Positions 2-16,996 of a stretch of DNA of 64,000 nucleotides are shown here, one piece after another. A program made the position numbers and the translations under genes. Origin of the DNA: Patescibacteria group bacterium (GTDB lineage: Bacteria > Patescibacteriota > Patescibacteriia > UM-FILTER-42-10); contig JBAYKW010000001.1 in the NCBI GenBank assembly GCA_041664365.1, positions 7,168 through 71,167 on the forward strand, given 5' to 3'. The number at the start of each line of letters is the position of its first letter. Position 1 is the stretch's first letter. A model generated the notes under the pieces. The model ran no database searches and was not told the DNA's origin. It saw only the letters and a list, made by a program, of their open reading frames with translations.

Positions 2-2614
2 TATGCACTGGAAGTTGGACTTGATTCCGGATTCAAACTGCTTTCAAGTATCGATCAATGGATGCTCCTAAAAAAGCATCTGGATGAATTTGAACTGAAA
101 TATTACAAACCGCTCGGCAACCCTACCAGATTTATTTATGCGCTGATCCAGCATTTCTCCCGCGTAAAAGACGAACATGTTTCGGCAAAAGAATATCTGG
201 CTTACGCACGGAAATTAAACAGCCGAAAAAACCTGAAACCGGATGAGAAGGAAGATGCGGAAAAGATATTGGAAGTGGCAAAAGCTTATCAGCAGTACCA
301 GTTGCTGTTGCAAAAAAACGGATATCTGGATTTTGGCGATCTAATCATACAAACTCTTGAGCTATTTAAAAAAAGAAAAAAAGTATTGGAGCAATTCAGG
401 AAGAAGTTCAAATACATATTGGTAGATGAATTCCAGGATACTAACTATGCTCAATATGAATTGATCAAGATATTGGCATCTCCTAAAAACAACATAACGG
501 TTGTGGGTGATGATGACCAGGCGATCTATCGTTTCCGCGGGGCATCCATGAGTAATATTTTGGAATTTAAAAAAGATTATCCGAAATCAAAAGAAGTTGT
601 ATTAATTAATAACTACCGTTCCCGGCAAAATATTTTGGACTTGTCTTATGAATTTATCCAGAAGAATAATCCGAACCGCCTGGAATATCAGCTGAAACAG
701 GATGCCGTGCAGAAGAAAAATCCGAAGATAAAAAAAGTGAGTAAAAAACTGGTTTCAAAAATTGATGGTGAAGGAATTATCAAACATATTGAATCAGATA
801 CTCAAGAAGATGAAGTGTTCAATATTTTGCGGGAAATTGAAAAGATTAAAAAAAGCGATCCGAAACTGACCTGGAATGATTTTGCAATACTAGTACGCGC
901 GAACAGCCAGGCGGATATTTTTGTAAATGTTTTTACCAACCAGGAAATTCCCTACCAATACGTAGCCGCCCGCGGTCTTTACCAGCAGCCCGAAATTCTG
1001 GATATCATCGCCTGGCTCAAGATGCTGGATAACTATCATGAAAGCCCGTCGCTATTCCGTGTTTTATCAATAGATCTGTTTAAAATAAAAACATCAGATT
1101 TGATCAATCTTTCCAATGAAGCAAAGAAGAAACGCATCTCGCTTTATGAAGTGATAGAAAGTCATCAGGAAGTCGGCGGGATTAGCCAGGATACCAGAAA
1201 ATCCTTAAACTATATTTTGGATCTGATAAAAAAACAGACAGCACTCGCCAAGGAAAAATCGGTCGGGCAAATCTGTTTTGAATTTCTTAAGGCAATCGGT
1301 TATTTGAATAAAATGAGCACTAAAGATGCTGAGGGGTATCACATTAAAATTCAGAATATCAGCAAGTTTTTTCGTAAAGTCCAGGACTTTGAGCGCAATA
1401 ACGAAGACAAGTCAGTGAAAAAATTCATGGAAGAACTGGAATTGGTTATTGATGTCGGTAACGATCCCGCGCCCGCGCAGATGGAAGAGGGGCCGGAAAG
1501 TATAAAGATAATGACAGTACACGGAGCGAAAGGTTTGGAGTTCTCTTATGTATTTATCGCCAATCTGGTGGATAAGCGTTTTCCCAGCATTGAGCGCCGT
1601 GAGCAGATTGAAGTTCCCGGTAAACTGATTAAGGAAATTATTCCGGAAGGGGATATTCACTTGCAGGAAGAGCGCCGGCTTTTTTATGTTGCCTGCACGC
1701 GGGCGCGGAAAGGCCTTTTCTTCAGTTCCGCCAAAGACGTGGGCGGAAAGACTGCCAAAAAACCATCACGGTTTTTATTTGAGATTGATATGGTAAAAGG
1801 GGAAAGATCGGAAAAATCTGAACAGCTGAATCTGGGATTTGATATTGTCAGGAAGAAAAATTTGAAAGTTGAAAAAATTAAATATCCGCTGCCAAAAACA
1901 TTCAGCTACTCTCAACTCAAGGCCTACGAAAAATGCCCGAAGCAGTATAAATATATGTTTATTTGGAAAGTTCCGGTTTTGACCGGGCGTCACACCTACA
2001 GCTTCGGTACCTCGGTGCATAATACATTAAAAGCGTTTTATGCTTTAGCACAGCAGGGGCATAAACCCACCAAAGCGCAGCTGATGAAGTTGTACGAGGA
2101 AAACTGGATTGATGACTGGTATGACTCCCGCCAGCATATGCAGGAAAGAAAAAAAGCAGGAAAGCTGATGCTGGAGGAATATTTCAAGACCAATAAAATA
2201 ATCAAGGCTCCTGTATTTCTGGAAAAGGGTTTCAATCTGAAAATCGGTGATTATTCATTCCGGGGGTTTATTGACCGGGTTGATTCTTTGGATAAGGAAT
2301 CCGTGGAGATTATCGATTATAAAACAGGCAAGAAGCCGGCGCGTAAAACGGAAATTGACCATGAACAGCTGATGATTTATCATATAGCTATGCAGGAGGT
2401 CTTTAAAATGAAGCCTGCAGAACTTAGTTTATATTTTTTGGACGGTAATGTTAAATATTCATTTACGGCATCGGTAAAAGACATTGAAGATCTGAAAGTA
2501 AAGATTATCGAATCGATCAAAGAAATTGAAAAAGGGGATTTTACTCCGGCACCGACCATTTATAAATGTGCGACTTGTGATTTCAGGGAAATCTGCGAGG
2601 ATCGTGCTGTATAA
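2..2614 (+). CDS. SF1 UvrD/PcrA-family DNA helicase (5'-partial, runs off window start) fused to a C-terminal PD-(D/E)xK Cas4/AddB-like nuclease domain
   Basis: ORF is open to position 2. Helicase motifs VDEFQDTNYAQYELI, VVGDDDQAIYRFRGA, TVHGAKGLEFSYVFI and RLFYVACTRAR. C-terminus has IIDYKTGK and a four-Cys cluster (CPKQ…CATCDFREIC) typical of Cas4/AddB nucleases. Walker A is missing, presumably upstream. Confidence 0.75.
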   Translation, partial: YALEVGLDSGFKLLSSIDQWMLLKKHLDEFELKYYKPLGNPTRFIYALIQHFSRVKDEHVSAKEYLAYARKLNSRKNLKPDEKEDAEKILEVAKAYQQYQLLLQKNGYLDFGDLIIQTLELFKKRKKVLEQFRKKFKYILVDEFQDTNYAQYELIKILASPKNNITVVGDDDQAIYRFRGASMSNILEFKKDYPKSKEVVLINNYRSRQNILDLSYEFIQKNNPNRLEYQLKQDAVQKKNPKIKKVSKKLVSKIDGEGIIKHIESDTQEDEVFNILREIEKIKKSDPKLTWNDFAILVRANSQADIFVNVFTNQEIPYQYVAARGLYQQPEILDIIAWLKMLDNYHESPSLFRVLSIDLFKIKTSDLINLSNEAKKKRISLYEVIESHQEVGGISQDTRKSLNYILDLIKKQTALAKEKSVGQICFEFLKAIGYLNKMSTKDAEGYHIKIQNISKFFRKVQDFERNNEDKSVKKFMEELELVIDVGNDPAPAQMEEGPESIKIMTVHGAKGLEFSYVFIANLVDKRFPSIERREQIEVPGKLIKEIIPEGDIHLQEERRLFYVACTRARKGLFFSSAKDVGGKTAKKPSRFLFEIDMVKGERSEKSEQLNLGFDIVRKKNLKVEKIKYPLPKTFSYSQLKAYEKCPKQYKYMFIWKVPVLTGRHTYSFGTSVHNTLKAFYALAQQGHKPTKAQLMKLYEENWIDDWYDSRQHMQERKKAGKLMLEEYFKTNKIIKAPVFLEKGFNLKIGDYSFRGFIDRVDSLDKESVEIIDYKTGKKPARKTEIDHEQLMIYHIAMQEVFKMKPAELSLYFLDGNVKYSFTASVKDIEDLKVKIIESIKEIEKGDFTPAPTIYKCATCDFREICEDRAV

Positions 2615-2619: not shown

Positions 2620-5175
2620 ATGATTACAATCAATCAGGAACAAATTGAAAAGATTTCGGGATTGTCAGCCGAAGCCGTGTTGGAGAAGCAGACAAAGTAC
2701 GGTTACAATGAGCTGAATTCCCAGAAGAAACATAATATATTTCAAATCCTTTTTGAAGTTATCAAAGAGCCGATGCTGGCTCTTTTGATTTCCATCAGTG
2801 TTATCTACCTCTTCTTAGGCGAGCAAAAAGACGCCTTTGTTTTAATGTTCGCGGTGGTGGGAGTAGTCGGCATCACACTGTTTCAAAAACGCAAAACAGA
2901 AAGAGCGCTAGACGCTTTAAAAAATTTATCCAGTCCTCGTGCATTGGTGATTCGTGAGGGAAAACAAATCAGGATTCCCGGCAGAGATGTGGTAAAAGAA
3001 GATATTATGGTTTTGGCCGAAGGAGACAGGGTGCCGGCGGATGCAGTAATTCTTTCCAGCGTTAATCTGCAGGTAGATGAATCATTATTAACCGGTGAAT
3101 CGCTTTCGGTAAAGAAAACGCAATATGAAGGGCAGGATCTGCCGAAAAGACCCGGTGGGGATAATCTGCCCTACGTTTATTCAGGCACGCTGGTTGTTCA
3201 AGGTAAAGCAACAGCCAGAGTTGAAGCAATCGGCGCGGATACGGAAATGGGGAAAATCGGCAAGGCGCTGGATTCCATAAAAGAAGAGGATACCCTACTG
3301 CAGAAAGAAACCGCCCGGCTGGTGCGTTATATCGGCAGTATCGGTTTGTTGCTTTGTGTTTTAATATTTCTGATCTACGGGCTGGCAAGAGGGGAATGGA
3401 TTGCCGGTTTACTGTCCGGTCTGACTTTAGCCATGGGAATACTGCCGGAAGAGTTTCCGATTGTTCTGTTAATATTTTTAGCCCTAGGAGCATGGCGGAT
3501 ATCAAAGAGAAATGTTTTGACCAGGCGCATGCCGGCGATTGAGACTTTGGGAGCCGCTACTGTTTTATGTGTCGACAAAACCGGAACAATCACACAGAAC
3601 AGAATGTCTTTAAATACTATTTATGTTGATGGTGAATACTATGACGTCGCTGAAAAAAAATCATTGCCGGAAAAATTCCACTCACTTTTAGAATATGCCA
3701 TGCTGGCCAGTCAGGAAGACCCATTTGATCCGATAGAACAGGAAATTAAAAAAGTAACTGTGGGTCTTCTTGAAAATACCGAGCATATCCATAAAGCATG
3801 GCAATTGAATAAGGAATACCCATTTACTAAAGAACTGCTTTCCATTGCGCACGTTTGGGAATCCAAAGATATGAAGGAATACACTGTCGCCGCCAAGGGC
3901 GCTCCGGAAACAATCGCTGATCTGTGTCATTTTACGACGGAAGAATTCAAAGAGCTTGAGGAAAAAATTAATGTTTTGGCCAATCGCGGTCTTCGGCTTC
4001 TCGGAGTGGCGAAGGCGACTTTTGAAAAAACAAATCTGCCTCAATCACAACATGATTTCAAATTTGAATTCGTGGGACTGCTCGGATTCTTAGATCCAAT
4101 CCGTACGCAGGTACCGGGCGCATTGCAGGAAGCATACAGCGCAGGTATTCGTGTAATTATGATTACCGGTGACTATCCGGGAACTGCCAGTTTTATTGCC
4201 CGGCAGATCGGGTTGAAAGATCCGGATAATTTTATCACCGGTCCACAGCTGGAAGCGATGAGCGCGGAAGAATTGAAAATTAAAATTGATTCGGTAAATG
4301 TTTTTAGCCGGGTTGTACCGGAACAGAAGCTGGCGATAGTCAATGCCTTGAAGGCACATGGTGAAATTGTGGCGATGACCGGCGACGGGGTAAATGATGC
4401 CCCTGCTCTGAAGTCGGCAAATGTCGGTATCGCTATGGGTAAAAGGGGAACAGATGTTGCACGTGAAGCCGCTTCACTTGTTTTACTGGATGATGATTTT
4501 ACTTCAATCATCCAGGCGGTAAAGCGGGGGAGGATTATTTTCAAAAATCTAAAAGAGGCCATATCGTATATCTTCGCGGTACATGTGCCGATCGCCGGAC
4601 TGGCATTTTTACCAGTTCTGTTTGGCATGCCGGTTATTCTCCTACCGATTCATATTACTTTCTTGGAATTGATTATTGATCCTGCCTGCACGATTGTTTT
4701 TGAAGCGGACCAGGCGGAAAAAGATGTTATGAAGCGCCACCCTCGGAATTTGAAAGAGCCATTATTTAATCGTAAGGCACTATTTTTTAGTCTAATTCAA
4801 GGGTTGAGTGTATTGATGATTACATTTGCGATTTATTTAATTACTTTAAACATTGGCAGAGGAGAACTTGAGGCTAGGACGCTGACATTTATCAGCCTGG
4901 TTGTAGGTAACTTGATTATGATTGCGGTAAATCTGTCCTGGTCGGAAAGTATCTTGAGTATTTTCAAATCTTCCAATCGCATAATGTGGTTGGTAATATC
5001 CGGCACGCTTGCTTCGTTAGTATTGATTTTTTCAGTTCCCTGGTTGACTGATCTGTTTCATATGTCCAGGATGAATTTGCAGAATGTGGTTTTGATTCTG
5101 ATATTTGGTATAGTTGTTGTATTCTGGTTTGAGCTCATGAAGAAGATTTTCAAGAGAAAGTATAAGGAGATTTAA
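2620..5175 (+). CDS. P-type (E1-E2) cation-transporting ATPase, P2/Ca2+-Mg2+-like
   Basis: Motifs TGES, CVDKTGTITQN (DKTGT phosphorylation site) and MTGDGVNDAPAL. Multiple transmembrane segments at both ends. 851 aa. Confidence 0.85.
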   Translation: MITINQEQIEKISGLSAEAVLEKQTKYGYNELNSQKKHNIFQILFEVIKEPMLALLISISVIYLFLGEQKDAFVLMFAVVGVVGITLFQKRKTERALDALKNLSSPRALVIREGKQIRIPGRDVVKEDIMVLAEGDRVPADAVILSSVNLQVDESLLTGESLSVKKTQYEGQDLPKRPGGDNLPYVYSGTLVVQGKATARVEAIGADTEMGKIGKALDSIKEEDTLLQKETARLVRYIGSIGLLLCVLIFLIYGLARGEWIAGLLSGLTLAMGILPEEFPIVLLIFLALGAWRISKRNVLTRRMPAIETLGAATVLCVDKTGTITQNRMSLNTIYVDGEYYDVAEKKSLPEKFHSLLEYAMLASQEDPFDPIEQEIKKVTVGLLENTEHIHKAWQLNKEYPFTKELLSIAHVWESKDMKEYTVAAKGAPETIADLCHFTTEEFKELEEKINVLANRGLRLLGVAKATFEKTNLPQSQHDFKFEFVGLLGFLDPIRTQVPGALQEAYSAGIRVIMITGDYPGTASFIARQIGLKDPDNFITGPQLEAMSAEELKIKIDSVNVFSRVVPEQKLAIVNALKAHGEIVAMTGDGVNDAPALKSANVGIAMGKRGTDVAREAASLVLLDDDFTSIIQAVKRGRIIFKNLKEAISYIFAVHVPIAGLAFLPVLFGMPVILLPIHITFLELIIDPACTIVFEADQAEKDVMKRHPRNLKEPLFNRKALFFSLIQGLSVLMITFAIYLITLNIGRGELEARTLTFISLVVGNLIMIAVNLSWSESILSIFKSSNRIMWLVISGTLASLVLIFSVPWLTDLFHMSRMNLQNVVLILIFGIVVVFWFELMKKIFKRKYKEI

Positions 5176-5259
5176 ATAATAATCATTAGGGTGCGAAAAG
5201 AAGTTAAGAAATTATAAATGCAATTCTACTCATAAAGGAAATTAACAATCATAAATATT

Positions 5260-6279
5260 ATGGATGTAATAGCTACAATCTGGAAGGTACCATATTATTA
5301 TGACCGTAATCAGCGGATGATAGATAGGGGTGTGGATTGTTTTAGGGTGAAATGCTCACACAACAGTGCTGATGAAATTATAAATTGCCTGCGGTCTGCC
5401 CGTAAACAGATTAATCAGAGCGGAAAACCAGTAAGACTATTAGCCGATCTTCCGGAAGCCAAAATTCGTTTGGGAGAATTCCCGCAAGAAAAAATTAATT
5501 TACCAGAAGATTATCAGTGTCTTTTCAAAAAAGCACAAAATTCTTCGGATCCTCTGGAATTTATTCCAATTAGAAATGAGAACGTAGGGAAATATTTGAT
5601 TGTGGGGGATGAATTTTATTTAGGGGACGGGCAATTATCATTTACGGTGATTAAAATTAATAGTACCAATGAATTTGTTGCAAGGACCAACAATTCCGGC
5701 AGGCTTATTTTTCGGTCTTCTATGACCATACCAAAGATGATGGATGAGATTAATCACATTACCCCATTTCTCGATGAAATAATCCCTCGGCTTCCCGAGG
5801 CTCAACCCGAAATGGTCGCTTTTTCTTTTGTTAGTTCCAAGGAAATGCTCCAGGAATTATTAACTAAATTGTCTAAATACACAACTCCTGATTGGCAGCC
5901 AAAAATAATCGCAAAAATTGAATCTCAAGCAGGAGTGGAAAATATTGATGAAATATTGGAATTGGCGGACGGGATTATGGTGGCAAGGGGAGATTTAGCA
6001 TTAACTATGCCCTATGCAAAATTGGGGATTACTCAAAAAATGTTAGTAAGCAAAGCACGCAGTGCCGGAAAGTACGTAATTGTTGCTACACAAGTCTTGC
6101 AGTCTTTACTTGATAATTATCTTCCGATGCGTTCTGACATATTGGATATCACTAATATGTGTTTAGATGGAGCATCTGCCGTAATGCTTTGCGCTGAAAC
6201 GTCACATAGTGATCATCCAGAGAGAGCGGTAGAGGTTGCCAAAGAAATAATAACCGCGGTGAATAATACTATAGTTTAA
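5260..6279 (+). CDS. pyruvate kinase-like protein (barrel domain only, lacks C-terminal regulatory domain)
   Basis: Signature KIIAKIESQAGVENIDEIL…MVARGDL and an N-terminal CFRVKCSHNS…GKPVRLLADLPEAKIRLG stretch resemble pyruvate kinase. At 339 aa it is about 130 aa shorter than typical pyruvate kinase. Confidence 0.55.
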   Translation: MDVIATIWKVPYYYDRNQRMIDRGVDCFRVKCSHNSADEIINCLRSARKQINQSGKPVRLLADLPEAKIRLGEFPQEKINLPEDYQCLFKKAQNSSDPLEFIPIRNENVGKYLIVGDEFYLGDGQLSFTVIKINSTNEFVARTNNSGRLIFRSSMTIPKMMDEINHITPFLDEIIPRLPEAQPEMVAFSFVSSKEMLQELLTKLSKYTTPDWQPKIIAKIESQAGVENIDEILELADGIMVARGDLALTMPYAKLGITQKMLVSKARSAGKYVIVATQVLQSLLDNYLPMRSDILDITNMCLDGASAVMLCAETSHSDHPERAVEVAKEIITAVNNTIV

Positions 6280-6398
6280 ACTAATAACATCGTTTAAGTA
6301 TTTATATGAAGTAATAGTGTCGGGTCTTGACACTTTTTTTATTTTTTGTAATATGTAGTCTCGCGCATAAATGGTTTCTGATCTGAAGGAGTCAGCTG

Positions 6399-6572
6399 AT
6401 GACTAAAGAGCAGGGCGACAGACTGCCCACACCCCCTTCACAAACCGACCATCATGGTCAAAAGCCTCTTGCGACGACCTCCGATTTCGAAAGGGTTCAA
6501 CAGTTCTCTGATGAGTTCCTGGAGACCTACGGCGGCCACGATCAGATCCCTCAAGGTCTCTTTCTCGGCTAG
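6399..6572 (+). CDS. small hypothetical protein (57 aa) in GC-rich island
   Basis: ATG sits 7 nt after a perfect AAGGAG. It is below the ORF-track cutoff. GC-rich like the neighbouring 648-aa gene. Overlapping alternative frames exist on both strands, so the call is weak. Confidence 0.3.
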   Translation: MTKEQGDRLPTPPSQTDHHGQKPLATTSDFERVQQFSDEFLETYGGHDQIPQGLFLG

Positions 6573-6751
6573 ATGCCTCATTGGCGGCCGTCTGTGCGGG
6601 CTTCCGGCCTTCATTGAGGTTTCGCACCCTCGGACCAATCTCTCCGGTCCGGAGCCCCCGACCTAATAAGCTGCGCGCGGATCGCTCGTTCTCGGGCCTT
6701 GCTGTTGTTTTTGACAGCGGGCCTTATTTTATTTGCATTGAAATTCGCCTT

Positions 6752-6817
6752 GGGGTCTTGACCCCGTTAGAGAAATTCTCTAACGGGGTTGACAAAATGA
6801 GTGTTTTGCTGTATGAT
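6752..6817 (+). promoter_or_regulatory. overlapping palindromes (ggggtcttgacccc; ccccgttagagaa/ttctctaacgggg) directly abutting a TTGACA-N17-TATGAT promoter
   Basis: TTGACA at 6789-6794, a 17-nt spacer, and TATGAT at 6812-6817. The 13-nt inverted-repeat arms are at 6762-6774 and 6776-6788. Confidence 0.45.
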
Positions 6818-6916
6818 GACACGTTTGCAGTATTGTCACAGTGACAGTACCTGTGAGCAGTCTACAGCGTTTCACTCCGAAGCGCGTAGACAGTACCTTA
6901 GCTAGGGGAGAGTGTC

Positions 6917-8863
6917 ATGCCGTATTTCCTTCAGGCACTGCTCGTAAGCGTCGTCTCCATCATGGTGCCGATCGCTTTCGGCGCTGTGCTGAAGTACCAC
7001 CGTCCCACAATCGCTTGGGCAGGTGGTTTCCTTGCCACTGTCCTGTACACTCTCATCGTGTTCTGGCTTTTCTGGAGCGGCGCTGTCGGCGTGTACGGAC
7101 CGACTCCGTTCGCTGATGCGCTCATCTTCGGGTTCGCCCTGTCGGGTGTCTTCATCGGCCTCGGGAGCGCCAAAGGGGGGTACAGAAACGAGTTCTCCGG
7201 CCGGAGTGTCATTGGCTTCGGCTCGGGCTGTGCTGCGATGCTGTGGGTGCTCGGCGTGAGCGTGTTCGGATCTTCGGACATGGTGCATGCCGAGAAGAAG
7301 GCAAGGGTGATCGGTACGGTCGCGGAAGTGACCGAGATCGCTGACGTCATCCAGCCCGCGGATCCGGCACACATCTGTCTTGTGTCCGAGTCGATCGCGC
7401 GCGTGAAGGCCAACCAGGCGCTGTCCGAGTTCAAGATGGACGGCGGTGTGGTGGCAGGATCGCGTTTCAAGATCGGTGACCCGACGAAGCAGTTCGTCTC
7501 CGGACAGCTGTGGTGGATCTTCCCGGTGGAGTTCCAGGGCTGGCTCAAGTGGCGTCAGTCCAAGGAAGTCCCCGGCTATATCCGCGTTTCGGCGGAAGAT
7601 CCGTACACGGAAGGTCAGGCTGTTCAGCAGGATAGCAACGGGCAGCCGATCGTCATCCGGTATCTGGAGAGCGCCTGCTGGGAGTTCCGGGCTGACCGCT
7701 ACCTGCGGGGACACGGGTATATGAGCGTGATCCTGAAGGATTTCACGTTCGAGGTAGACGACAACTGGCGTCCGTTCTATACGGTTTCAGTCATGAAAAG
7801 AACCGTCGGTTACGCCGGCGAAATCACGACCGGAGTCGTCACGCTTGATCTGCAGACCGGCGATGCCAATCCCTACGGTATCGCGAACCTCCCTTCGTGG
7901 ATCGACCGCGGTGTTCCGCTCGACGTGATCGACAAGAATCTCAAGCGCTGGGCGAAGTACCGGCTTGAGGGATGGTGGTACTGCCTCCTACACAACGACA
8001 AGTCGATGGAACCAACGGAAGGATGGTTCCTGATCACCGATCCCGACGGTACCAGTCAGTGGTTCACTGGGCTCACCTCAACCAACGCGGGCGACGAGGC
8101 ACTCACCGGCTACACGGTTTCGGACACACGCACAGGTCTCACGACATACGTGAAGGCCCAGGGTGTGACCGAGTCTGTCTCGGCTCAGGCTGCGAAGTCG
8201 CTCTGGAGCAACTTCGATGGGTACGAACCGACCGAGCTCGTTCCGTACAATCTCTATGGACGTCTGACGTATGTCATTCCGATGGCGTACAACGGACAGT
8301 TCAAGGGCGTCAGTCTCGTCTCGCTCTCCAACCAGGAGGTTGCGGCGAAGGGAGCGACGCTTGAAGAGGCGCTTCGTGAATACCGCAATGCGCTCGCGCG
8401 TTCGGGCAGTAATGCCCTTGCACCGAGCGGTGGAGACCTCGCGCAGCTGACAATCACCGGCGTGGTGGGGCGGGTCGGGCAGCCGATCAGCCAGCAGACT
8501 GGGCAGCCGGTCATTCCGTTCACGATTGATGGCGTGGCCAAGGTGTTCACGGCCATCTACACGTACGACAATCCTGCCGTACTCGTGATGCGATCCGGCG
8601 ACGCTGTGACAGTCGAGTACCTCCAGACTGGCGAACGCGTGATCGCTTGCGAATCGGTGATCCTGTCGGGCATCCCGATTTCCGACGAGAACCCGGTGCA
8701 GGCACGCGCGAATGAACATCGTGCAATCGCCGATCGTGAACGCGGTCGGATCGATACGCAGCAGGAGCGTAACCAACTTCTCGAGAGCAACCGGATGAAC
8801 AACGTTGATCCGGAAGCACTCAAGAAGTTCCTCGACAGCCAGTCCGACAGCACTGCTCATTAG
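6917..8863 (+). CDS. GC-rich polytopic membrane protein (4 N-terminal TM helices plus ~500-aa extracytoplasmic domain), function unknown
   Basis: 648-aa ORF in DNA visibly far more GC-rich than the flanks. GGGGAGAG lies before the ATG. Hydrophobic N-terminus. No family recognised. Antisense ORFs in this span are shadow ORFs. Confidence 0.7.
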   Translation: MPYFLQALLVSVVSIMVPIAFGAVLKYHRPTIAWAGGFLATVLYTLIVFWLFWSGAVGVYGPTPFADALIFGFALSGVFIGLGSAKGGYRNEFSGRSVIGFGSGCAAMLWVLGVSVFGSSDMVHAEKKARVIGTVAEVTEIADVIQPADPAHICLVSESIARVKANQALSEFKMDGGVVAGSRFKIGDPTKQFVSGQLWWIFPVEFQGWLKWRQSKEVPGYIRVSAEDPYTEGQAVQQDSNGQPIVIRYLESACWEFRADRYLRGHGYMSVILKDFTFEVDDNWRPFYTVSVMKRTVGYAGEITTGVVTLDLQTGDANPYGIANLPSWIDRGVPLDVIDKNLKRWAKYRLEGWWYCLLHNDKSMEPTEGWFLITDPDGTSQWFTGLTSTNAGDEALTGYTVSDTRTGLTTYVKAQGVTESVSAQAAKSLWSNFDGYEPTELVPYNLYGRLTYVIPMAYNGQFKGVSLVSLSNQEVAAKGATLEEALREYRNALARSGSNALAPSGGDLAQLTITGVVGRVGQPISQQTGQPVIPFTIDGVAKVFTAIYTYDNPAVLVMRSGDAVTVEYLQTGERVIACESVILSGIPISDENPVQARANEHRAIADRERGRIDTQQERNQLLESNRMNNVDPEALKKFLDSQSDSTAH

Positions 8864-8908
8864 TCCTTCGGGACCGCTACGAAGCCAGCGCTTGGCTTCC
8901 GCAAGACC

Positions 8909-8960
8909 CTATCATCCTCACCGATGATGCGATACCGGGGTCTTTTTCTTTTGTGTAATT
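8909..8960 (+). terminator. bipartite hairpin (gaccc/tatcatc…gatgatg/ggggtc) followed by tttttctttt
   Basis: Imperfect nested stem ending at ccggggtc, followed by a T-rich run, immediately 3' of the GC-rich gene. Confidence 0.35.
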
Positions 8961-8967
8961 TTCCTAT

Positions 8968-8996
8968 TTGACACAAAGTCAATCTTATGGTATGAT
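8968..8996 (+). promoter_or_regulatory. TTGACA-N17-TATGAT promoter upstream of M4 protease gene
   Basis: TTGACA at 8968-8973, exact 17-nt spacer, TATGAT at 8991-8996. Confidence 0.4.
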
Positions 8997-9110
8997 ATCA
9001 ATATTAATATGTGACTAAATAAATAAACATGTGGATTTATTATCCATTTCTGCAATCAACCCGACAATATGATTTGGTTGTTTTTGTTTATGTTGACTAA
9101 ATAGTACATC

Positions 9111-12100
9111 ATGAAAAAAATTATAACGTTTTTTCTGACATTAACGATATCAGTAATTTATTTAGTGGGTGTATTTCATAATGCTTATGCTGAATCAAAT
9201 CAAACTGAGGATTCTAATATTGCTCAATTACAAAATGAGGACGGGAAGGAAACATTAACTGATCTGCAAAACAAGTTGGGAGATAATCTGCAATACACTA
9301 TCGATCAGAATACTGGCAATTTATCTTTTATAAAAAGCCAGGGTAATGGAATACCGCTTACTGGTGCAAGTAGTAATGCAGTGGGTGGAACAAGTATGGC
9401 CGGGTTATTTTTGAAAGAATACGGCGCGTTGTTTGGGATTAATGATCCGGTGTCAGATTTATCCGTAATGAAAGAGACAACGGATGCATTGGGCATGAAA
9501 CACATCCGATATAATCAGCGCTATGCCGGCGTGCCGGTCTTTGGTGGAGAGGTGATTGTCCATTTGAATGGTAATCTGACGGTTGCTTCGGCCAACGGCA
9601 GGGCTATATCTAATACATCTTTAGATGTTACTCCTGTAATTTCCAGTGAAGTTGCTGTAACAAAAGCGAAAGAAATTTGGCAAAATCAATTCGATACAGA
9701 TAATCCGGAAGTGCTGAAAACAAACCTGTATGTTTTTAATAAATCGCTTTTTAACAAAAATAATGAAGATCAAAATTATTTAGTTTGGCAAATAGAATTA
9801 TATAAAAAAACTCCCAGTCTGCATGAATTTTATTTTATTGATACCCGAGACGGCAGTCTCGTTCACCAAATTACAGGTATCAAGAACGCCATTAGTCGCC
9901 GTATCTATGACTGTTCTTACGGAGATGGTTTTTGTTACTTAGATGCATATGATGCAGTCTCCGCTTATACATTAGGCCGTTCCGAAGGAAAGCCGATCCG
10001 CGGTACCAACCCCTGGTATGGTCTAACCGATGTGGATAATTTGTACAGTATAACAGGTTATGCTCATAATTATTTTTTAAATACATTTAGCCTTAACGGT
10101 GCAAATAATTTAGGCGGGCTGGGAGATGGAACTTATGTCCCATATACAAGGACTGAAGGCCTAGCTTATATAGACCCGGTGTATCCAGCATGTCCAAATG
10201 CTTTTTATGATGGTTACGCTATAAATTTCTGTACTGGCTGGGTAACTACCGATATTGTTGCTCATGAGTACGGTCATGGTGTTACTCAATTTTCTGTAGT
10301 AGATGGTTATGGAAATCCTGCCGGTTTGATTTATTCTGACGAATCGGGTGCTTTAAGTGAGTCTTATGCTGATGTTTTTGGTGAAGCTGTTGAGAATTAT
10401 AGTGATGGATCTGGTGATTGGTTGATTGGCGAGGATTTGACCGGTGGTGCCCTGCGCAGCATGAGTGATCCGATGAGTATGTCATATCCCGATCGTTTTA
10501 ACAGTCCTTATTTTTATTGTGGTGATTCTGACCAGGGGGGAGTTCATATCAATAACTCAGTACCGAATTACGCCGCATATTTAATGGCTATGGGTGGTAC
10601 TTTCAACAATTGTACGATTAATGGTATCGGGCGGGCTAAGGAAGAAGCAATATATTACCGCGCACTTACTCAATATCTCACCACCAGTTCCGGTTTTAAT
10701 GATGCATATAATGCTCTAGTCACTTCCTGCCAGGATCTTTATGGAGCTTTGAGCAGTGATTGCCGGCAAGTAGTTAAGGCTTTACGTGCGGTGGAAATGA
10801 ATCAGGGTGGATACTGCAGTGGACAGACAGCTGTTGACCCGGGTTGTGCTGTTATTGATGCGACGCCAAGTGTTACTCAAGTTTCATCTGATAAAGCTGA
10901 CGGTACTTATATTGCCGGTACCGTGATTGATATTGATGTTACTTTTTCTAAAGCGGTTACTTCAAGTGGTGAAATTACTGTAACTTTGGAAACGGGCGCT
11001 ACAGACAGAAGTTGTACTTTCTCAGTTAGCAACGCTGCTTTCGGCAGTTGTGACTATACCATTCAAGCCGGTGATAACAGTAACGATTTAAATGTTAAAA
11101 GCATTTCTGGCTCGATAACAGATGCTTACGGTAATACGGTAACTGACCTTACACCCGGAAGCGATTTGTCTAGTAATAAAAATATTAAAATCGGTGCTCC
11201 TACGCTTGGACTGTTACTTTCACAAGCATCTGATACTGAACCTTTCATCAAACGTGTTGGTCATCATGGCAACAAAATTAAATCATTCGCTGTACACAAA
11301 GGAAAAGGAGGGGTATTAAGTGTTGAAGCCGATATTAATGGTGACGGAATTAATGAAATTGTCGTTGCGCCAGAAGCCGGACTCGGAGGTAAGGTAAAGG
11401 CTTATACAAAAAACGGGGCAGCGCTTGCTTCTTTCAGTCCTTTTGGCAGTAAATTCAATGATGGAATCAGTCTTACTTCGGGCGATGTGAACAACGACGG
11501 GAAAAAAGAAATCATTGTTTCCCCGCTCACTAAGGGAACGCCAAAAATAAAAGTTTTCCGCTACGCAAATAAAAAATTTACACTGCTGAAAGAGATTAAA
11601 GTTTTTGGCAGTAGTGTCCCGGGCGGTCTGATTGTAAGTTCCGGTGATGTCAATGACGATAATATTGACGAAATTATTGTTTCGCCGTATCAGGATCAGG
11701 ATAAAAAAGATCGGGTGGTAAAAATCTATGCTTACCGTAACAACAAACTGGTTAAACTTGCTTCAAAACAGCTCTATAGTAAACGCACTGAATATCAGGG
11801 AATTAAAACTACCACTGCCGATCTGGACGGTGATGGCAGAGATGAAATTATTGCCACTCCTTCGCTAAATTTTGGCGATGACATCCAGGTCTACGGATAT
11901 GCAAACGGGGGGTTAACGCATCTGGATGATGTATGGGCATACTCCGCGTCTTTTAACGGGCTTACATCTCTTGCAACCGGCGACATTAATTCTGACGGCA
12001 GAAATGAAATTATGCTTACGATAAAAACCGGTGGATTACCTTATGTCTTTATCTATAAATTTAACAATGGAAAACTTGTTCTGCATGACAAATTCCGCGC

Positions 12101-12302
12101 ATATGATAAGGAATTTACCGGCGGTGTCAATCTTGCCGTGCTTGATATTGATGGAGATAATAAAGCGGAAGTGATCACTGCACCATATAGTGGTAAACAG
12201 AAAGTAAAAGTATGGGACGTCGAATCAACTAAACAAAAACTGCACTCTTCCTTTTGGGGGTTTGGCAAGGATTTTGAAGGTGGAATCAATTTTGCCCGGT
12301 AA
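9111..12302 (+). CDS. secreted M4 (thermolysin-like) zinc metallopeptidase with FTP/PepSY propeptide and C-terminal FG-GAP/VCBS β-propeller repeats
   Basis: Signal peptide. HEYGH zinc site within VAHEYGHGVTQF, plus GALSESYADVFGEAVE. At least six repeats of the form GDxNxDGxxEIIVxP. 1063 aa. Confidence 0.8.
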   Translation: MKKIITFFLTLTISVIYLVGVFHNAYAESNQTEDSNIAQLQNEDGKETLTDLQNKLGDNLQYTIDQNTGNLSFIKSQGNGIPLTGASSNAVGGTSMAGLFLKEYGALFGINDPVSDLSVMKETTDALGMKHIRYNQRYAGVPVFGGEVIVHLNGNLTVASANGRAISNTSLDVTPVISSEVAVTKAKEIWQNQFDTDNPEVLKTNLYVFNKSLFNKNNEDQNYLVWQIELYKKTPSLHEFYFIDTRDGSLVHQITGIKNAISRRIYDCSYGDGFCYLDAYDAVSAYTLGRSEGKPIRGTNPWYGLTDVDNLYSITGYAHNYFLNTFSLNGANNLGGLGDGTYVPYTRTEGLAYIDPVYPACPNAFYDGYAINFCTGWVTTDIVAHEYGHGVTQFSVVDGYGNPAGLIYSDESGALSESYADVFGEAVENYSDGSGDWLIGEDLTGGALRSMSDPMSMSYPDRFNSPYFYCGDSDQGGVHINNSVPNYAAYLMAMGGTFNNCTINGIGRAKEEAIYYRALTQYLTTSSGFNDAYNALVTSCQDLYGALSSDCRQVVKALRAVEMNQGGYCSGQTAVDPGCAVIDATPSVTQVSSDKADGTYIAGTVIDIDVTFSKAVTSSGEITVTLETGATDRSCTFSVSNAAFGSCDYTIQAGDNSNDLNVKSISGSITDAYGNTVTDLTPGSDLSSNKNIKIGAPTLGLLLSQASDTEPFIKRVGHHGNKIKSFAVHKGKGGVLSVEADINGDGINEIVVAPEAGLGGKVKAYTKNGAALASFSPFGSKFNDGISLTSGDVNNDGKKEIIVSPLTKGTPKIKVFRYANKKFTLLKEIKVFGSSVPGGLIVSSGDVNDDNIDEIIVSPYQDQDKKDRVVKIYAYRNNKLVKLASKQLYSKRTEYQGIKTTTADLDGDGRDEIIATPSLNFGDDIQVYGYANGGLTHLDDVWAYSASFNGLTSLATGDINSDGRNEIMLTIKTGGLPYVFIYKFNNGKLVLHDKFRAYDKEFTGGVNLAVLDIDGDNKAEVITAPYSGKQKVKVWDVESTKQKLHSSFWGFGKDFEGGINFAR

Positions 12303-12405
12303 TTTTGTGGACAATATATATTAATTCTTCATGAAAGCAACGTAACACTTTGATTGCTATATTTTGTGTATTTGAATAAATAATTTCGGTAAATAAGATA
12401 CCGCT

Positions 12406-12432
12406 TTGACATGCACTAATATGTATGATAAT
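12406..12432 (+). promoter_or_regulatory. TTGACA … (TATGAT/GATAAT) promoter-like element upstream of GC-rich lipoprotein gene
   Basis: TTGACA at 12406-12411. GATAAT follows after 15 nt, or TATGAT after 12 nt. AGGGAGGG RBS at 12466-12473. Confidence 0.35.
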
Positions 12433-12481
12433 TTAGTTTTTCCGCGCTCCAATTGTCTGTGTCGTTCCAGGGAGGGCAGAA

Positions 12482-13132
12482 ATGAAGTTGCTGGATGCCG
12501 GCGTCATGCTGGTGCTCGTGGTGCTGATGGCATGCTGCATGATCAACCGTGATGATGTGGCAACCAACAAGCCGGATATCAGTACGGCTCAGGCGGCGGT
12601 GGATACCGTCTCCTACGATCCACTCAATACTCCGCCGTCAGGGATATCGGCGGTCAACCGCTTCTACGCCATCGTGGCGGAATACTTCCGCACTGTCGAA
12701 GAAGAGAATTCCGCCTGGATGAGTAATGAGCAGCATTCCAAGACCCGGTTCGAGAAGGAAAATCTGACCAGCTTTTTCACCTGGTGCTGTTTGAGGGACT
12801 ATTACCAGGACAAGCTGACACCGGAAGACAAACGCTGGCTGTTTGCCAATCTGGACGGATCGCGCCCACTGCCAGTCGGCATCGCGTTCGACTACTGGGG
12901 TCCGATCACGGACGTCCTGGGATTTGAGCCGACGGGTAATCCGCGTGCAGATTTTGAGGACTTTCTCCTCAACTCCTTTCCGGATACGGATTACCAAACG
13001 GGGTTCGACGCCTTTCATGACGCAAAAGCCATGAAGGCAATTCACCAGACGGTCCGTGCGCGGATGAAATCGCTAGGGGTCGAATATCCCAATGATCTTT
13101 CGCAGGCCGAGAGTCTGCTCACGTCCGAATAG
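12482..13132 (+). CDS. GC-rich putative lipoprotein, unknown function
   Basis: Hydrophobic N-terminus with an L-M-A-C lipobox-like motif. GGAGG RBS. Codon usage far more GC-rich than the neighbours. Confidence 0.55.
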   Translation: MKLLDAGVMLVLVVLMACCMINRDDVATNKPDISTAQAAVDTVSYDPLNTPPSGISAVNRFYAIVAEYFRTVEEENSAWMSNEQHSKTRFEKENLTSFFTWCCLRDYYQDKLTPEDKRWLFANLDGSRPLPVGIAFDYWGPITDVLGFEPTGNPRADFEDFLLNSFPDTDYQTGFDAFHDAKAMKAIHQTVRARMKSLGVEYPNDLSQAESLLTSE

Positions 13133-13165
13133 AAGCAACCGCTTCTGTCCGGATTTTTTTATTTT
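13132..13165 (+). terminator. hairpin (gaagc aacc gcttc / tccgga) plus T7
   Basis: Short stems followed by TTTTTTTATTTT. Confidence 0.35.
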
Positions 13166-13166
13166 A

Positions 13167-13264
13167 CCCCCACACCAATATTATTAATAAAAATGGACGG
13201 ATATTTAATTGTAATTATGTTAGATTTATAAAATGTAAATTAAACTACCATATTGGTGTGGGGA
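13167..13264. repeat. 13-14 bp perfect inverted repeat (ccccacaccaata / tattggtgtgggg) bracketing a 70-bp AT-rich spacer
   Basis: Arms at 13168-13180 and 13251-13263. The arms are paralogous to the hairpin at 16347-16368. Confidence 0.55.
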
Positions 13265-13293
13265 TAAAAAAACGAAGACATGGTTAGTCTTCG
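13265..13293 (-). terminator. intrinsic terminator for the minus-strand GC-rich gene (stem cgaagac/gtcttcg, A-tract on + strand)
   Basis: On the - strand it reads cgaagac-taaccat-gtcttcg followed by TTTTTTT. The stop codon lies in the loop. Confidence 0.5.
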
Positions 13294-13769
13294 CAGGAAA
13301 GAGCGGTAGCGGGCGAGTGTTCGTCAGATTGTTCCGGAATCCTCCAGATGGCCAGCGAGCGACTTTTGGTCTTCCGGTATCCGATACCGTCGTCCGTGGC
13401 TATCAGATCGCGCATTGCGCGCAGGATCCGTGTTTCGCTGACGCCCCAGCCTTTGGCATTGAGGCGTTGCCGCACGTCGTTCGGTCGGATCTCCTTCAAT
13501 GGCTTTGCCATAGCCAGGATTCCGCGGATTTCCGCGAACAGGAGTTGGTCCGATTCCGCAGTGTCGGGGTAGTCGCGTGTTCGTACCTGTTCGGTACAGG
13601 GTACGATATGACGTAGCTTCGCCCTCTTGAGTGTCTCCTTTTCGCGCTTGCGATAATCCCTGATGACGGGGACGGCGAGCAGGGCGACCCAACCCAAGAC
13701 ACAGATGGCGATCAGCAGGTCCCCGTACTGACTGGCTCCCTGAGCGGTGGTCGTGACCGTGGTGTCCAT
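13284..13769 (-). CDS. GC-rich membrane-anchored protein with C-terminal winged-helix-like segment
   Basis: Internal start at MDTTVTT (AAAGG precedes it) is preferred over the track start at 13850. One TM helix. RILRAMRDLIATDDGIGYRK resembles a winged HTH. Confidence 0.45.
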   Translation of the reverse strand: MDTTVTTTAQGASQYGDLLIAICVLGWVALLAVPVIRDYRKREKETLKRAKLRHIVPCTEQVRTRDYPDTAESDQLLFAEIRGILAMAKPLKEIRPNDVRQRLNAKGWGVSETRILRAMRDLIATDDGIGYRKTKSRSLAIWRIPEQSDEHSPATALSCED

Positions 13770-13906
13770 AATAACCTTTCTTGTTCGGTTACTCTCCCGT
13801 CTGGCAAACATCGGTTCCACGGCGTTTGCAGTAATAAAACCTAGCACCACTAGTCTTGTTTGTCAACGAGTGATATAATTCTATAATAATAATTGATTGT
13901 AATAAT

Positions 13907-14155
13907 ATGCCTGAAAAACAAGAAAAAAAAGAAGAATTCGTAATTTCCGGCGATAAAGTTGTGGAAAAAGTGAAGGAATTGATCAAAGAGGGAAATGCCC
14001 GTCGGATTATTATTAATAATGAAAAAGGCGAATCAATTATTGAGATTCCCGTAACAGTAGGGGTAGTTGGTGCTTTGATTGCGCCAGTTTTAGCCGCTAT
14101 TGGTGCGGCAGCCGCTCTGCTGACAAAATGCACAATAGTCGTGATTAAAAAATAG
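13907..14155 (+). CDS. DUF4342-like small membrane-associated protein
   Basis: 82 aa. Pattern EEFVISGDKVVEKVKELIKEGNARRIIINNEKGESIIEIPVTVGVVGALIAPVLAAIGAAAAL fits the DUF4342 family. Confidence 0.5.
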   Translation: MPEKQEKKEEFVISGDKVVEKVKELIKEGNARRIIINNEKGESIIEIPVTVGVVGALIAPVLAAIGAAAALLTKCTIVVIKK

Positions 14156-14158
14156 TGT

Positions 14159-15058
14159 ATGCCAGAAGCAATTATCAGTGTTAAGAATTTTTCTAAATCC
14201 TTCGGAGACAATAAAGTTGTAACTGATCTTTCTTTTGATGTACAAAAAGGAGAAGTCTTCGCCTTGCTCGGTGCCAACGGATCGGGGAAAACAACAACTA
14301 TCCGCTGTCTTTTAAACATTCTACAACCGGATACCGGATCGCTTCTGATTGATGGAAAAAAATATGACCAGTCCATGTCCGGTCACGTCGGCTATTTGCC
14401 GGAGGAAAGGGGATTATATACTTCCGAAAGAGTAATTGATACCATGGTCTATTTCGGCGAACTGAAAGGAATGTCAGCTAGCGATGCCAAAAAATGGTCC
14501 TATGGATATCTGGAAAAAGTCGGATTGCATGATAAGGCAAGATTAAAAGTTAAAAAACTGTCATCCGGCCAGCAGCAAAAGATTCAGCTCGGGATTACGA
14601 TTATCAATCAGCCGGATTTATTGATACTGGACGAGCCGACCAAAGGGCTAGATCCGGTAAACAGGACTCTGCTCATGGATATGCTTTTGGATATGAAGGA
14701 AAAGGGAAGTACGATAATATTTATTACTCATCAGATGGAAGAGGTGGAAAAGATAGCCAACCGTCTCCTTATGATCCAGGACGGCAAACGGATTTTATAC
14801 GGAGCGGTGGATGAAGTAAAAGCGCAATTCGGCGAGGATCGGATACACGTTCAGTTCAGAGGTATATTGCCGAAAAACGACCAACTCTATTCCATCGCTA
14901 ATGACACGACTAATTCCGCCTCCTTGATTTTAAAAGAAGGAATCACCCCGAAAGACACGCTATCATATTTAGCTGGGACAGAACTGAAAATTACAAAATT
15001 TGAAGTGGCGGCACCTTCATTAGAAGAAATATTTGTAATGGTATCAAAACAACAATGA
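14159..15058 (+). CDS. ABC transporter ATP-binding protein
   Basis: Walker A GANGSGKTTT, ABC signature LSSGQQQK, Walker B LLILDEPT. Confidence 0.85.
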   Translation: MPEAIISVKNFSKSFGDNKVVTDLSFDVQKGEVFALLGANGSGKTTTIRCLLNILQPDTGSLLIDGKKYDQSMSGHVGYLPEERGLYTSERVIDTMVYFGELKGMSASDAKKWSYGYLEKVGLHDKARLKVKKLSSGQQQKIQLGITIINQPDLLILDEPTKGLDPVNRTLLMDMLLDMKEKGSTIIFITHQMEEVEKIANRLLMIQDGKRILYGAVDEVKAQFGEDRIHVQFRGILPKNDQLYSIANDTTNSASLILKEGITPKDTLSYLAGTELKITKFEVAAPSLEEIFVMVSKQQ

Positions 15059-16470: not shown

Positions 16471-16908
16471 ATGCGTAAGCAGGCAAGTGCTTCCGTCGAT
16501 CGCGTGGAAAAACTCCGCCTCTGGGTGGAACGCTGTGATGATCATGACACGGGGAGTCTCTTCATGTCGATCCGGCCGGGTGCTTCAACACATGAAGGCG
16601 GCGTATATATCAGCTGCCAGGAAGGTACGAGGTACCTCTTCGCTGGTGAAGCAATTAACCTCAAGTCGCTGAATGCTGCTCTCGCGAGTAATATTCGCGA
16701 CGAATTCGAGGTGATTGTGACTGGCGTTCTCTACCAAGTCATTCATGGCGCCTTCGAGGTAGTTACTCAGGCACATCTGGCCGACACCGAGGATGGTGAA
16801 GGCAAGGTTGTGGCACCGAACTGGTCAGAAAAAGAACTGGCACGCATGCGCCGGGACTTTGCTCCCATCCACTTCATTCAGGCGGAAACGCTTGTCGTAA
16901 ACCTGTAG
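16471..16908 (+). CDS. GC-rich hypothetical protein (145 aa)
   Basis: GC-rich ORF between a promoter module and a terminator module. No recognisable domain. Confidence 0.5.
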   Translation: MRKQASASVDRVEKLRLWVERCDDHDTGSLFMSIRPGASTHEGGVYISCQEGTRYLFAGEAINLKSLNAALASNIRDEFEVIVTGVLYQVIHGAFEVVTQAHLADTEDGEGKVVAPNWSEKELARMRRDFAPIHFIQAETLVVNL

Positions 16909-16938
16909 ACAGTCCGTTCTTTTGGTCTTAACCGGCCG

Positions 16939-16978: not shown

Positions 16979-16996
16979 ATGAATTGGGGTGCTTAA

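Follow-up and report, generated by a model that had tools for sequence, protein, structure and literature searches.

Within a 64,000-nucleotide (nt) stretch of a Patescibacteria group bacterium genome (contig JBAYKW010000001.1, positions 7,168 to 71,167 of the forward strand; hereafter the window) lies a gene for a predicted 648-amino-acid (aa) envelope protein, which has a putative promoter and terminator of its own and differs sharply in base composition from its neighbours. The locus is best classed as a single-gene islet that is horizontally mobile and encodes a member of an undescribed protein family. We put the probability that this 648-aa cassette was horizontally acquired at about 0.6; the donor would have been a GC-richer patescibacterium. 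The GC-rich stretch in which it lies is real but composite, and as predicted from sequence it is made of an ancestral small open reading frame (ORF) unit at 6327-6735 and a separate 648-aa cassette at ~6740-8955. By its GyrB the host belongs to the Patescibacteria near Candidatus Kerfeldbacteria (76-77% identity), and its closest relatives are 92-96% identical.

The composition of the stretch is unlike that of the DNA around it. Positions 6360-8950 have 53-62% GC versus ~40% in the flanks. In successive 400-nt intervals GC is 0.525-0.618 over 6401-8800 and 0.32-0.39 to each side. It steps up at the left edge from 0.37 (6001-6400) and is 0.37 again beyond the right edge (8801-9200), where it falls from 0.61 at the 3' terminator of the 648-aa gene. 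The gene itself has a GC of 0.598 and a GC at third codon positions (GC3) of 0.746, against native values of ~0.42 and ~0.44. Adjoining genes for pyruvate kinase and an M4 protease have a GC3 of 0.34 and 0.33, and the native genes of the window range from 0.34 to 0.56, mostly 0.40-0.47. The dinucleotide distance (delta*) of the cassette is 218 versus 50 +/- 21 (maximum 110) in native 2-kb chunks. A preliminary description of this DNA, made from its letters and ORFs, had reported ~2.6 kb more GC-rich than the pyruvate kinase and M4 protease genes and had proposed a composition and codon-usage comparison with native genes. The interval profile and the GC3 values agree with that report, and the comparison finds the cassette atypical. 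The description had also taken the stretch as one island; its GC-richness stands, but it is not a single foreign unit, since 6327-6735 is shared with the relatives L034, L114 and L115.

Could a native gene acquire such a composition through translational selection, under very high expression? The strong terminator, the stabilising hairpin at the 5' end and a promoter close to consensus would suit this explanation, as would the dedicated strong promoters that are common in the family and the raised GC3 of many family members. However, the ribosomal-protein genes L11 and L1 have a GC3 of 0.42, and the ribosomal-protein genes of the window together with NusG have ordinary values of 0.36-0.42. The non-coding spacer, leader and terminator of the cassette are GC-rich as well, first and second codon positions (GC1 and GC2) are likewise shifted, and the dinucleotide signature lies ~8 standard deviations from native. 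In locus L004 the flanks include L20, L35 and IF3, yet the family gene is the highest in GC3. In L020, the sole GC-rich genome among those compared, the family gene is GC-poor and comes last in GC3 rank. Given the native GC3 of the ribosomal genes and the high GC of the non-coding parts, we reject expression-driven codon bias as a very improbable cause.

An even poorer prospect is a chimera, in which assembly or binning placed GC-rich DNA in an AT-rich contig. Sharp compositional boundaries and a source that is a metagenome-assembled genome would fit such an accident. Against it, an independent Logan assembly, L008 from run SRR6484324, agrees with the window at 100% identity throughout 11,693 nt (2772-14464) and spans both junctions; the preliminary description had named misassembly as an outcome that would undo its reading, and the two assemblies agree. 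One junction is at a terminator and the other at a promoter, with flanks homologous to relatives up to the breakpoints. Moreover, several islands of the same pattern occur on the contig, and some are syntenic in relatives. We consider a chimera hardly credible.

The relatives compared were L034 (JGI), L115/L116 (ENA/Logan), L114 (NCBI) and L121; GyrB identity to the window is ~87% for L034 and L115/L116 and 96% for L121. A metagenome scan with the pyruvate kinase gave at least one close relative. In L034, L114 and L115/L116 the upstream helicase is 85% and the pyruvate kinase 77-82% identical to the window proteins. Both L034 and L115 have the order helicase, pyruvate kinase, small ORF, p216-like, p145-like, p174-like, p134, PheS, PheT and GyrB, and the span from pyruvate kinase to PheS is ~4 kb in L034/L115 versus 18 kb in the window. 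Homology to the relatives stops just past the T-tract of the small-ORF terminator (~6735) and restarts at the promoter and Shine-Dalgarno sequence of p216 (~12,400). The block specific to the window (~6,736-12,395) therefore holds the 648-aa cassette and then the M4 protease gene of native composition. In L034 and L115/L116 the small-ORF terminator abuts the p216 promoter cleanly, with no remnant of the 648-aa gene.

Other searches for a close copy also came back empty. The 90%-identity cluster of the 648-aa protein consists solely of the copies from this genome, and the next-best homologue is 54% identical. Of 72 homologue matches, none comes from a long contig of a relative, and these contigs include one of 1.18 Mb with a GyrB identity of 92%. 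Absence is read directly at the syntenic site in L034 and L115/L116; at GyrB identities of 92-96% it is read indirectly, from the lack of contig matches. In a neighbour-joining tree the window gene is sister to a gene from L009, both within an ABY1-like clade. The sister gene has a GC of 0.59 and a GC3 of 0.78, with flanks, including GroES, at 0.50-0.53. The window contains no paralogue of the 648-aa gene, and no direct repeats were found at the cassette junctions.

The left part of the GC-rich stretch has a different history. The terminator of the pyruvate kinase gene is kept 3' of the stop codon in L034 and L114. A motif CTTGACAcTTTTTTTATTT..TAnAAT then occupies an equivalent site in the window, L034 and L114, followed by a Shine-Dalgarno sequence and an ATG. 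Small ORFs of 54-62 aa occupy the same position in L034, L115 and L116. They end in an invariant P-x-G-x-FLG before the stop, and identity between the window protein and those of the relatives is 23-37% versus 77-79% for the adjacent pyruvate kinase. DNA alignment shows that the small-ORF stop codon, the GC-rich spacer and the terminator (GGGCCTTGCTG...CAGCGGGCC and a T-tract, ~6694-6735) are kept in the window, L115 and L034; the terminator scan places the stem at 6698-6721, followed by CCTTATTTTA. Because the synteny and high GC of its promoter, ORF and terminator extend to three relatives, the small-ORF unit is ancestral. The 57-aa ORF, judged from its sequence and position, is a real, ancestral, hyperdivergent small-protein gene separate from the cassette. 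The preliminary description was right about this small ORF and its perfect Shine-Dalgarno sequence, which stands 7 nt before the ATG. It was also right that ~170 bp of GC-rich non-coding DNA follow, but these are not featureless, for they hold the kept intrinsic terminator. The 57-aa product has no match in Pfam, PHROG, NCBIfam or PADLOC.

The most serious competitor to acquisition is that the 648-aa gene is itself ancestral, as part of a GC-rich hypervariable region from pyruvate kinase to PheS, and was deleted in the sampled relatives. Its composition could then have been upheld by recurrent allelic replacement from a GC-rich pool or by GC-biased gene conversion, and would not be the mark of a single recent transfer. 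Much of what weighs against acquisition speaks for this alternative. The direction of the change, insertion or deletion, is not polarised, so that loss of the cassette in the relatives is possible. The ancestral genes of the region (the small ORF, p216, p145 and p174) are GC-rich in all relatives; the neighbouring GC-rich genes are syntenic, have a GC of 0.47-0.61 in L034, L115 and L121, and are 42-60% identical versus 72-99% for their flanks. Because these neighbours are GC-rich in the relatives too, GC-richness by itself is no proof of recent transfer in this lineage. Deletions also occur in the interval, where L034 and L115 have both lost DNA. Where the window has 14159-16278, L034 (12614-12765) keeps remnants of an ABC transporter, namely ATPase codons 1-32 and permease residues 378-395 of 407, and this scar shows that the interval can lose DNA as well as gain it. 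The family tree broadly agrees with ABY1 taxonomy, and vertical descent with fast evolution could account for the position of the window gene in an ABY1-type clade (Komeilibacteria, Magasanikbacteria). Finally, the M4 gene in the same window-specific block is natively composed, and no integrase, tRNA, target-site duplication or other mobility signature was found.

Four observations nevertheless make ancestry with loss in the relatives unlikely. L034 and L115 have no remnant of the gene at their clean terminator-promoter junction. No close member of the subfamily was recovered from any long contig of a relative. Both the GC3 and the delta* of the 648-aa gene exceed those of the ancestral island genes. 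In addition, a second GC-rich island of the window, with the genes p188 and p748, is demonstrably gained relative to the very close relative L121: it is a clean ~3.2-kb insertion (37510-40710) between Tmk and GatB, which are adjacent in L121. This insertion shows that the lineage gains GC-rich DNA. Horizontal acquisition of the 648-aa cassette remains our preferred reading.

In the proposed arrangement, the GC-rich stretch would hold two independent transcription units. The first would belong to the hypervariable, persistently GC-rich stretch that runs from pyruvate kinase to PheS in the relatives. The second (~6740-8955) would be a monocistronic, moron-like cassette composed of an upstream hairpin, a sigma-70 promoter, a ~93-nt leader, the 648-aa coding sequence and a terminator. 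It would be set between the terminator of the small ORF and the promoter of p216, with the M4 protease gene after it. Transcription would proceed from the promoter at 6789-6817 and start near 6824. The coordinates are collected in Table 1.

Table 1. Features of the GC-rich stretch, domains of the 648-aa protein and further GC-rich genes of the window
Feature	Position	Strand	Details
Intrinsic terminator of the pyruvate kinase gene	6316-6341	+	Stem 6316-6334, then TTTTTTTATTT (terminator scan); AT-rich, native; left compositional boundary
Promoter of the small-ORF unit, sigma-70 type	6327-6354	+	TTGACA-N16-TAATAT; scan, 10/12 consensus matches
Shine-Dalgarno sequence and 57-aa ORF	6386-6572	+	AAGGAG 6386-6391; ORF 6399-6572 (ORF list)
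GC-rich spacer and intrinsic terminator of the small-ORF unit	6573-6735	+	Hairpin ~6694-6723; T-rich 6724-6735
Nested palindromes at the cassette start	6752-6789	+	GGGGTC-TT-GACCCC (6752-6765) and a perfect 14-nt inverted repeat
Promoter of the 648-aa gene	6789-6817	+	TTGACA-N17-TATGAT; scan, 11/12 consensus matches
5' leader, ~93 nt	6824-6916	+	Start inferred; hairpins ~6826-6852 and ~6860-6891; Shine-Dalgarno GGAG 6907-6910
Coding sequence of the predicted 648-aa envelope protein	6917-8863	+	ORF list; NCBI locus tag WCW66_00060 (392-kb contig)
Transmembrane helices	residues 3-23, 30-55, 66-84, 98-119		AlphaFold model
Beta-rich ectodomain (predicted)	residues ~136-505		AlphaFold model
OB-fold barrel (predicted)	residues ~510-585		AlphaFold model
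C-terminal helices	residues 593-647		Ending in the conserved VDPxxLxxFLxxQ motif
Terminator region of the 648-aa gene	8881-8954	+	Small hairpin 8881-8899; long hairpin 8903-8944, then UUUUUCUUUU; right compositional boundary
GC-rich gene p216	12482-13132		GC3 within 0.55-0.76
GC-rich gene p188	13284-13850	-	GC3 within 0.55-0.76
GC-rich gene p145	16471-16908		GC3 within 0.55-0.76
GC-rich gene p124	17130-17504		GC3 within 0.55-0.76
GC-rich gene p174	23219-23743		GC3 within 0.55-0.76
GC-rich gene p188	37674-38240		GC3 within 0.55-0.76
GC-rich gene p748	38253-40499		GC3 within 0.55-0.76

The signals at both ends suggest that the 648-aa gene is expressed from its own promoter and ends at its own terminator. 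Upstream, the 14-nt inverted repeat (6761-6774/6776-6789) is 100% complementary, and its last base is the first T of the -35 hexamer. The preliminary description had reported a nested palindrome abutting a TTGACA-N17-TATGAT promoter, and it is found exactly so, with the shared base at 6789 and GGGGTC..GACCCC nested at 6752-6765. The folding energy of the palindrome is -26 kcal/mol (z = -6.2). Its position is taken by a canonical terminator at other loci of the family, and the palindrome is a candidate insulating hairpin or operator, which would shield the gene from read-through of the small-ORF unit or act as a control site. The promoter class recurs in the family: a strict TTGAC[AT]-N16-18-TAnnnT occurs at most 300 nt upstream in 11 of the 16 loci of the family from the candidate phyla radiation (CPR), where the background is 0.036 per 300 nt.

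The leader (6820-6920) folds at -38.1 kcal/mol (z = -3.7). Its 5'-proximal hairpin has the sequence TATTGTCAC-A-GTGACAGTA (~6826-6852) and would stabilise the mRNA; a direct repeat GACAGTACCT is present twice at the leader. Hairpin leaders are usual at the 5' ends of other family loci, and L002 has nearly the same palindrome. The palindrome TATTGTCAC-N-GTGACA stands just 3' of the -10 hexamer in the window (6826-6852), in L002 (7936-7951) and in L003 (2433-2450). It is present in the leader of a Komeilibacteria-like homologue with 51% protein identity and absent from the sister locus of the latter, L010. A shared operator, a hairpin for stability and chance are all possible explanations. Rfam at gathering thresholds matched no family in the whole window, leader included.

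Downstream of the gene, 8864-8960 folds at -29.1 kcal/mol (z = -2.1). RNA folding places a hairpin at 8903-8944 before a U-tract, as the preliminary description had it; the consensus terminator scan missed this hairpin, whose loop and bulge are beyond the limits of the scan. The next promoter is AT-rich and lies at 8968-8996. It serves the M4/thermolysin-like protease gene with FG-GAP repeats (9111-12302) and has the same hexamers and spacing as that of the 648-aa gene (TTGACA-N17-TATGAT), plus a TG extension.

The protein is of a kind that curated libraries do not hold. No match to it was found in Pfam (E <= 1), PHROG or NCBIfam. Together with the 57-aa product and the other island proteins, it also matches no defence family in PADLOC-DB v2 at E <= 0.1. 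The preliminary description had called the products unrecognisable. For the curated libraries this is so, but the 648-aa protein is a member of a large conserved family that includes phage genes. The architecture given there, four transmembrane helices and a ~500-aa soluble domain, is confirmed by the family alignment and by an AlphaFold model (pLDDT 84, pTM 0.72). An alignment of 40 sequences confirms the ATG at 6917 and has 37 invariant columns. Signature motifs in the window protein are PGY-x-(R/V)VSAEDP, FE-x-DD, P-x-WIDR and TG-x-TS. In the superfamily as a whole R261 and G315 do not vary, and Q192, Y249, E279, P286, W328, D330, R331 and S388 are at least 90% conserved. The polar residues Q192, Y249, R261, E279, D330, R331 and S388 suggest a single conserved binding or catalytic site.

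The distribution of charge points to the topology. Mean K+R counts are 1.43 in loop 1, 1.45 in the adjoining stretch of the second helix and 0.68 in loop 3, compared to 0.07 at the N-terminus and 0.10 in loop 2. As the positive charges gather in loops 1 and 3, the large domain is predicted on the outer face of the membrane. Four N-terminal helices would act as an anchor, with the beta-rich domain, OB-fold barrel and helical tail displayed outside and the conserved site on the cell surface. The beta-rich ectodomain, ~450 aa, has no solved structural relative. The BFVD database has one full-length fold match, A0A6G5YLZ4 (E 1e-33, template-modelling scores 0.62/0.68). The barrel has the five strands of an OB fold; identity to OB-fold proteins is 12-16% over ~12% of the protein. 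Nucleic-acid binding cannot be inferred from it because of this low identity and because the domain is predicted to be extracytoplasmic. A GT-C-type glycosyltransferase related to DUF6056 was considered and rejected: the window protein lacks a Pfam match and has only four transmembrane helices versus the at least eight required. The phage homologues score 20.4 and 16.8 bits against DUF6056, under the 27-bit cut-off and in the transmembrane region only.

The profile and structure searches suggested in the preliminary description were run on the 648-aa protein and, besides the BFVD match, return abundant homologues. A homologue search gave 72 matches with 38-54% identity over ~99% of the length. 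A profile search of 1.84 billion representatives gave 1,487 clusters at E <= 0.001, 708 of them at E <= 1e-30. In each of the 150 matches listed the similarity forms a single stretch, and the proteins are 316-651 aa long, mostly 530-650. An hhalign comparison of the family with the distant member P0300 has a probability of 100%. MFA6391130.1, MDA2922981.1 and QBJ03364.1 are examples of this undescribed family of four transmembrane helices and a beta-rich ectodomain, which has no Pfam accession. Among the matches in genomes are several CPR classes, Spirochaetes/Leptospirales, Obscuribacterales, Ignavibacteriales and the cultured Bacillaceae Salipaludibacillus and Salisediminibacterium. Members from Bacillaceae, Leptospirales, phages and other distant sources have no match in curated libraries beyond the sub-threshold DUF6056, and literature searches found no description of the family. 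One member from a metagenome-assembled genome, MGE5474662.1 (P0300), is labelled 'cell shape-determining protein' at NCBI, a label that no NCBIfam or Pfam model explains.

Homologues are also encoded by phages. By tblastn these have 23-26% identity over ~80% of the length (E 1e-26 to 1e-28). In the Lactobacillus brevis myophages 521B (B521_0014, QBJ03364.1) and SAC12B the gene is annotated as a 'membrane associated protein' and lies in the early region. In the L. crispatus phage vB_Lcr_AB1 it is ORF25 (QRD99582.1), between ERF/replication genes and ArpU. One Enterococcus phage and several gut phage contigs also have it. The cassette could accordingly be the remnant of a prophage or integrative element, and the homologues in Lactobacillus and Enterococcus phages, the full-length BFVD match and the moron-like layout would all suit such an origin. 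However, Pfam, a tRNA scan and a repeat search identify no integrase, recombinase, capsid, terminase, tRNA or att-like repeats in the window-specific block, and the tRNA scan is negative for the whole window. IMG/VR has just one contig with a distant relative (25% identity), and the CPR family loci lie among housekeeping genes. We regard a prophage origin as improbable.

In other genomes the family behaves like an accessory gene that moves and brings its own signals for expression. The CPR family gene is solitary and lies in variable contexts that are rich in housekeeping genes. The preliminary description had envisaged that the homologues might be ordinary core genes of native composition; instead the family is patchy, absent here in the relatives and often GC-deviant elsewhere. 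When the genes at 27 loci are ranked by GC3 among their neighbours, the family gene has a mean normalised rank of 0.29 versus 0.5 expected (P ~3e-5), and at 17 of the 27 it is among the top three versus 7.6 expected (P ~9e-5); the loci are phylogenetically non-independent and the P values are indicative only. Between the syntenic Komeilibacteria-like loci L001 and L002 the family gene has 64% identity, compared with 87-89% for M17, NifU and IscS. An idea of iron regulation was dropped, since an 85-aa transmembrane ORF that lies upstream of the family gene and beside FUR-IscS-NifU in L001 and L002 is unrelated to the 57-aa ORF and is not kept elsewhere. L001 also has a pair resembling a diversity-generating retroelement (542-1945; RVT_1 reverse transcriptase and bAvd) ~6 kb from the family gene, which is probably coincidental.

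What the protein does can be proposed by analogy. The family is accessory, patchy, fast-evolving and transferable, and it occurs in early or accessory regions of phages. For this reason we tentatively suggest an envelope-acting or receptor-masking role in phage-host conflict, similar to superinfection exclusion. This role has no PADLOC or PHROG match behind it, and the strongly conserved core would equally fit a housekeeping envelope enzyme. A housekeeping role in the envelope or in cell shape is the main alternative function, and we consider it rather doubtful. More speculative still is a general picture in which an undescribed extracytoplasmic envelope family of CPR bacteria, Firmicutes, spirochaetes and Firmicutes phages serves surface exclusion or masking in phage-host or symbiont-host conflict, and in which the GC-rich genes form a distinct accessory pool. 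If this were true, a GC3 of 0.58-0.76 would have been kept in genomes of ~0.42 whose housekeeping proteins differ by up to 28%. This would call for ongoing replacement of alleles, or gene conversion biased to GC, at hypervariable loci of fixed position.

The window has seven further GC-rich genes (Table 1), all unrecognised. The p174 gene is 57% identical between the window and L121, with a GC of 0.585 versus 0.61; identity is 95% for its neighbours p134 and PheS. Such persistent GC-rich hypervariable loci may reflect either the replacement of alleles from a pool or biased gene conversion. The p188 protein of 37674-38240 has FlgD_ig and Por_Secre_tail (type IX secretion sorting) domains, which are unexpected in a patescibacterium and hint at transfer between phyla.

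Several other regions of the window deserve mention. Upstream, the 850-aa ORF at 62-2614 is a UvrD/PDDEXK (AddA-like) helicase-nuclease by the Pfam domains of its 85%-identical orthologues, and not a second pump. The P-type ATPase gene that follows (2620-5175) has native composition and is missing between the helicase and pyruvate kinase in L034, L114 and L115. Either the window lineage gained it or the relatives lost it. An AT-rich island of GC 0.26-0.39 (51.7-57.0k) includes an RVT_1 reverse transcriptase (51677-52993), a PIN_12 protein (54790-55761) and several unknown proteins, and 51677-56990 resembles a defence island. Also AT-rich is a NUDIX gene (62087-62575). The positions 42385-50186 hold a pyrimidine-biosynthesis run of PyrI, PyrD, a dihydroorotase-like amidohydrolase and a PyrE-like phosphoribosyltransferase (by Pfam) with PyrB (by orthologue), and 33.8-37.5k holds dCMP deaminase, dUTPase, ThyA, DHFR and Tmk. 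Such completeness of nucleotide metabolism is unusual in the CPR. L121 has a CYTH-domain gene (16768-17316) between dUTPase and ThyA which the window does not.

CPR bacteria, or Patescibacteria, have tiny genomes with few recognised genes for defence or surface interaction; the accessory DNA that they hold and gain is hence informative. The locus described here is a cleanly bounded single-gene cassette between two transcription units in a hypervariable hotspot. Its family of ~1,500 clusters is undescribed by curated libraries and ties the CPR to lactobacillus and enterococcus phages with culturable hosts. The persistent GC-rich, hyperdivergent loci may outweigh the 648-aa gene in importance, as they bear on the upkeep of bacterial base composition.

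The closest parallel in organisation is with the morons of phages. A moron is a gene with its own promoter and terminator that is compositionally unlike its neighbours, a concept that comes from the genomics of lambdoid prophages. The cassette is likewise a single gene with a putative promoter and terminator, set between two pre-existing units and of sharply distinct composition. Unlike morons, it lies in a bacterial chromosome amid housekeeping genes, with no adjacent phage genes. The homologues in 521B, SAC12B and vB_Lcr_AB1 and the protein A0A6G5YLZ4 resemble the window protein in having an N-terminal transmembrane region followed by a large beta-rich domain. They differ in that they are shorter (558-588 aa), are phage-encoded and have no PHROG family, whereas the window protein belongs to a CPR subfamily with the VDPxxLxxFLxxQ tail. 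The OB-fold proteins (SSB, PriB, RPA and the anticodon-binding domains of LysRS and AsnRS) are unlike it, because the window domain is predicted to lie outside the cytoplasm and makes up ~12% of the protein.

Two further systems offer a comparison at the level of the locus and of the possible function. The O-antigen and capsule clusters of enterobacteria are hypervariable surface-structure loci with persistently atypical GC. The GC-rich loci of the window lineage are similar in their fixed place between conserved flanks, in alleles that are more divergent than the flanks and in atypical GC that is kept across lineages. However, the deviation here is to high GC, and the products are small secreted or membrane proteins and not enzymes of sugar pathways. 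The Imm and Sp proteins of T4 and the Llp protein of T5 are early-expressed phage membrane proteins for superinfection exclusion or receptor masking. They have no sequence or structural similarity to the present family, which is much larger (550-650 aa) and whose deeply conserved polar residues suggest a single biochemical activity. Like that family, they are membrane-anchored and encoded by early or accessory phage genes, and the cellular copies of the family are patchy, fast-evolving and mobile.

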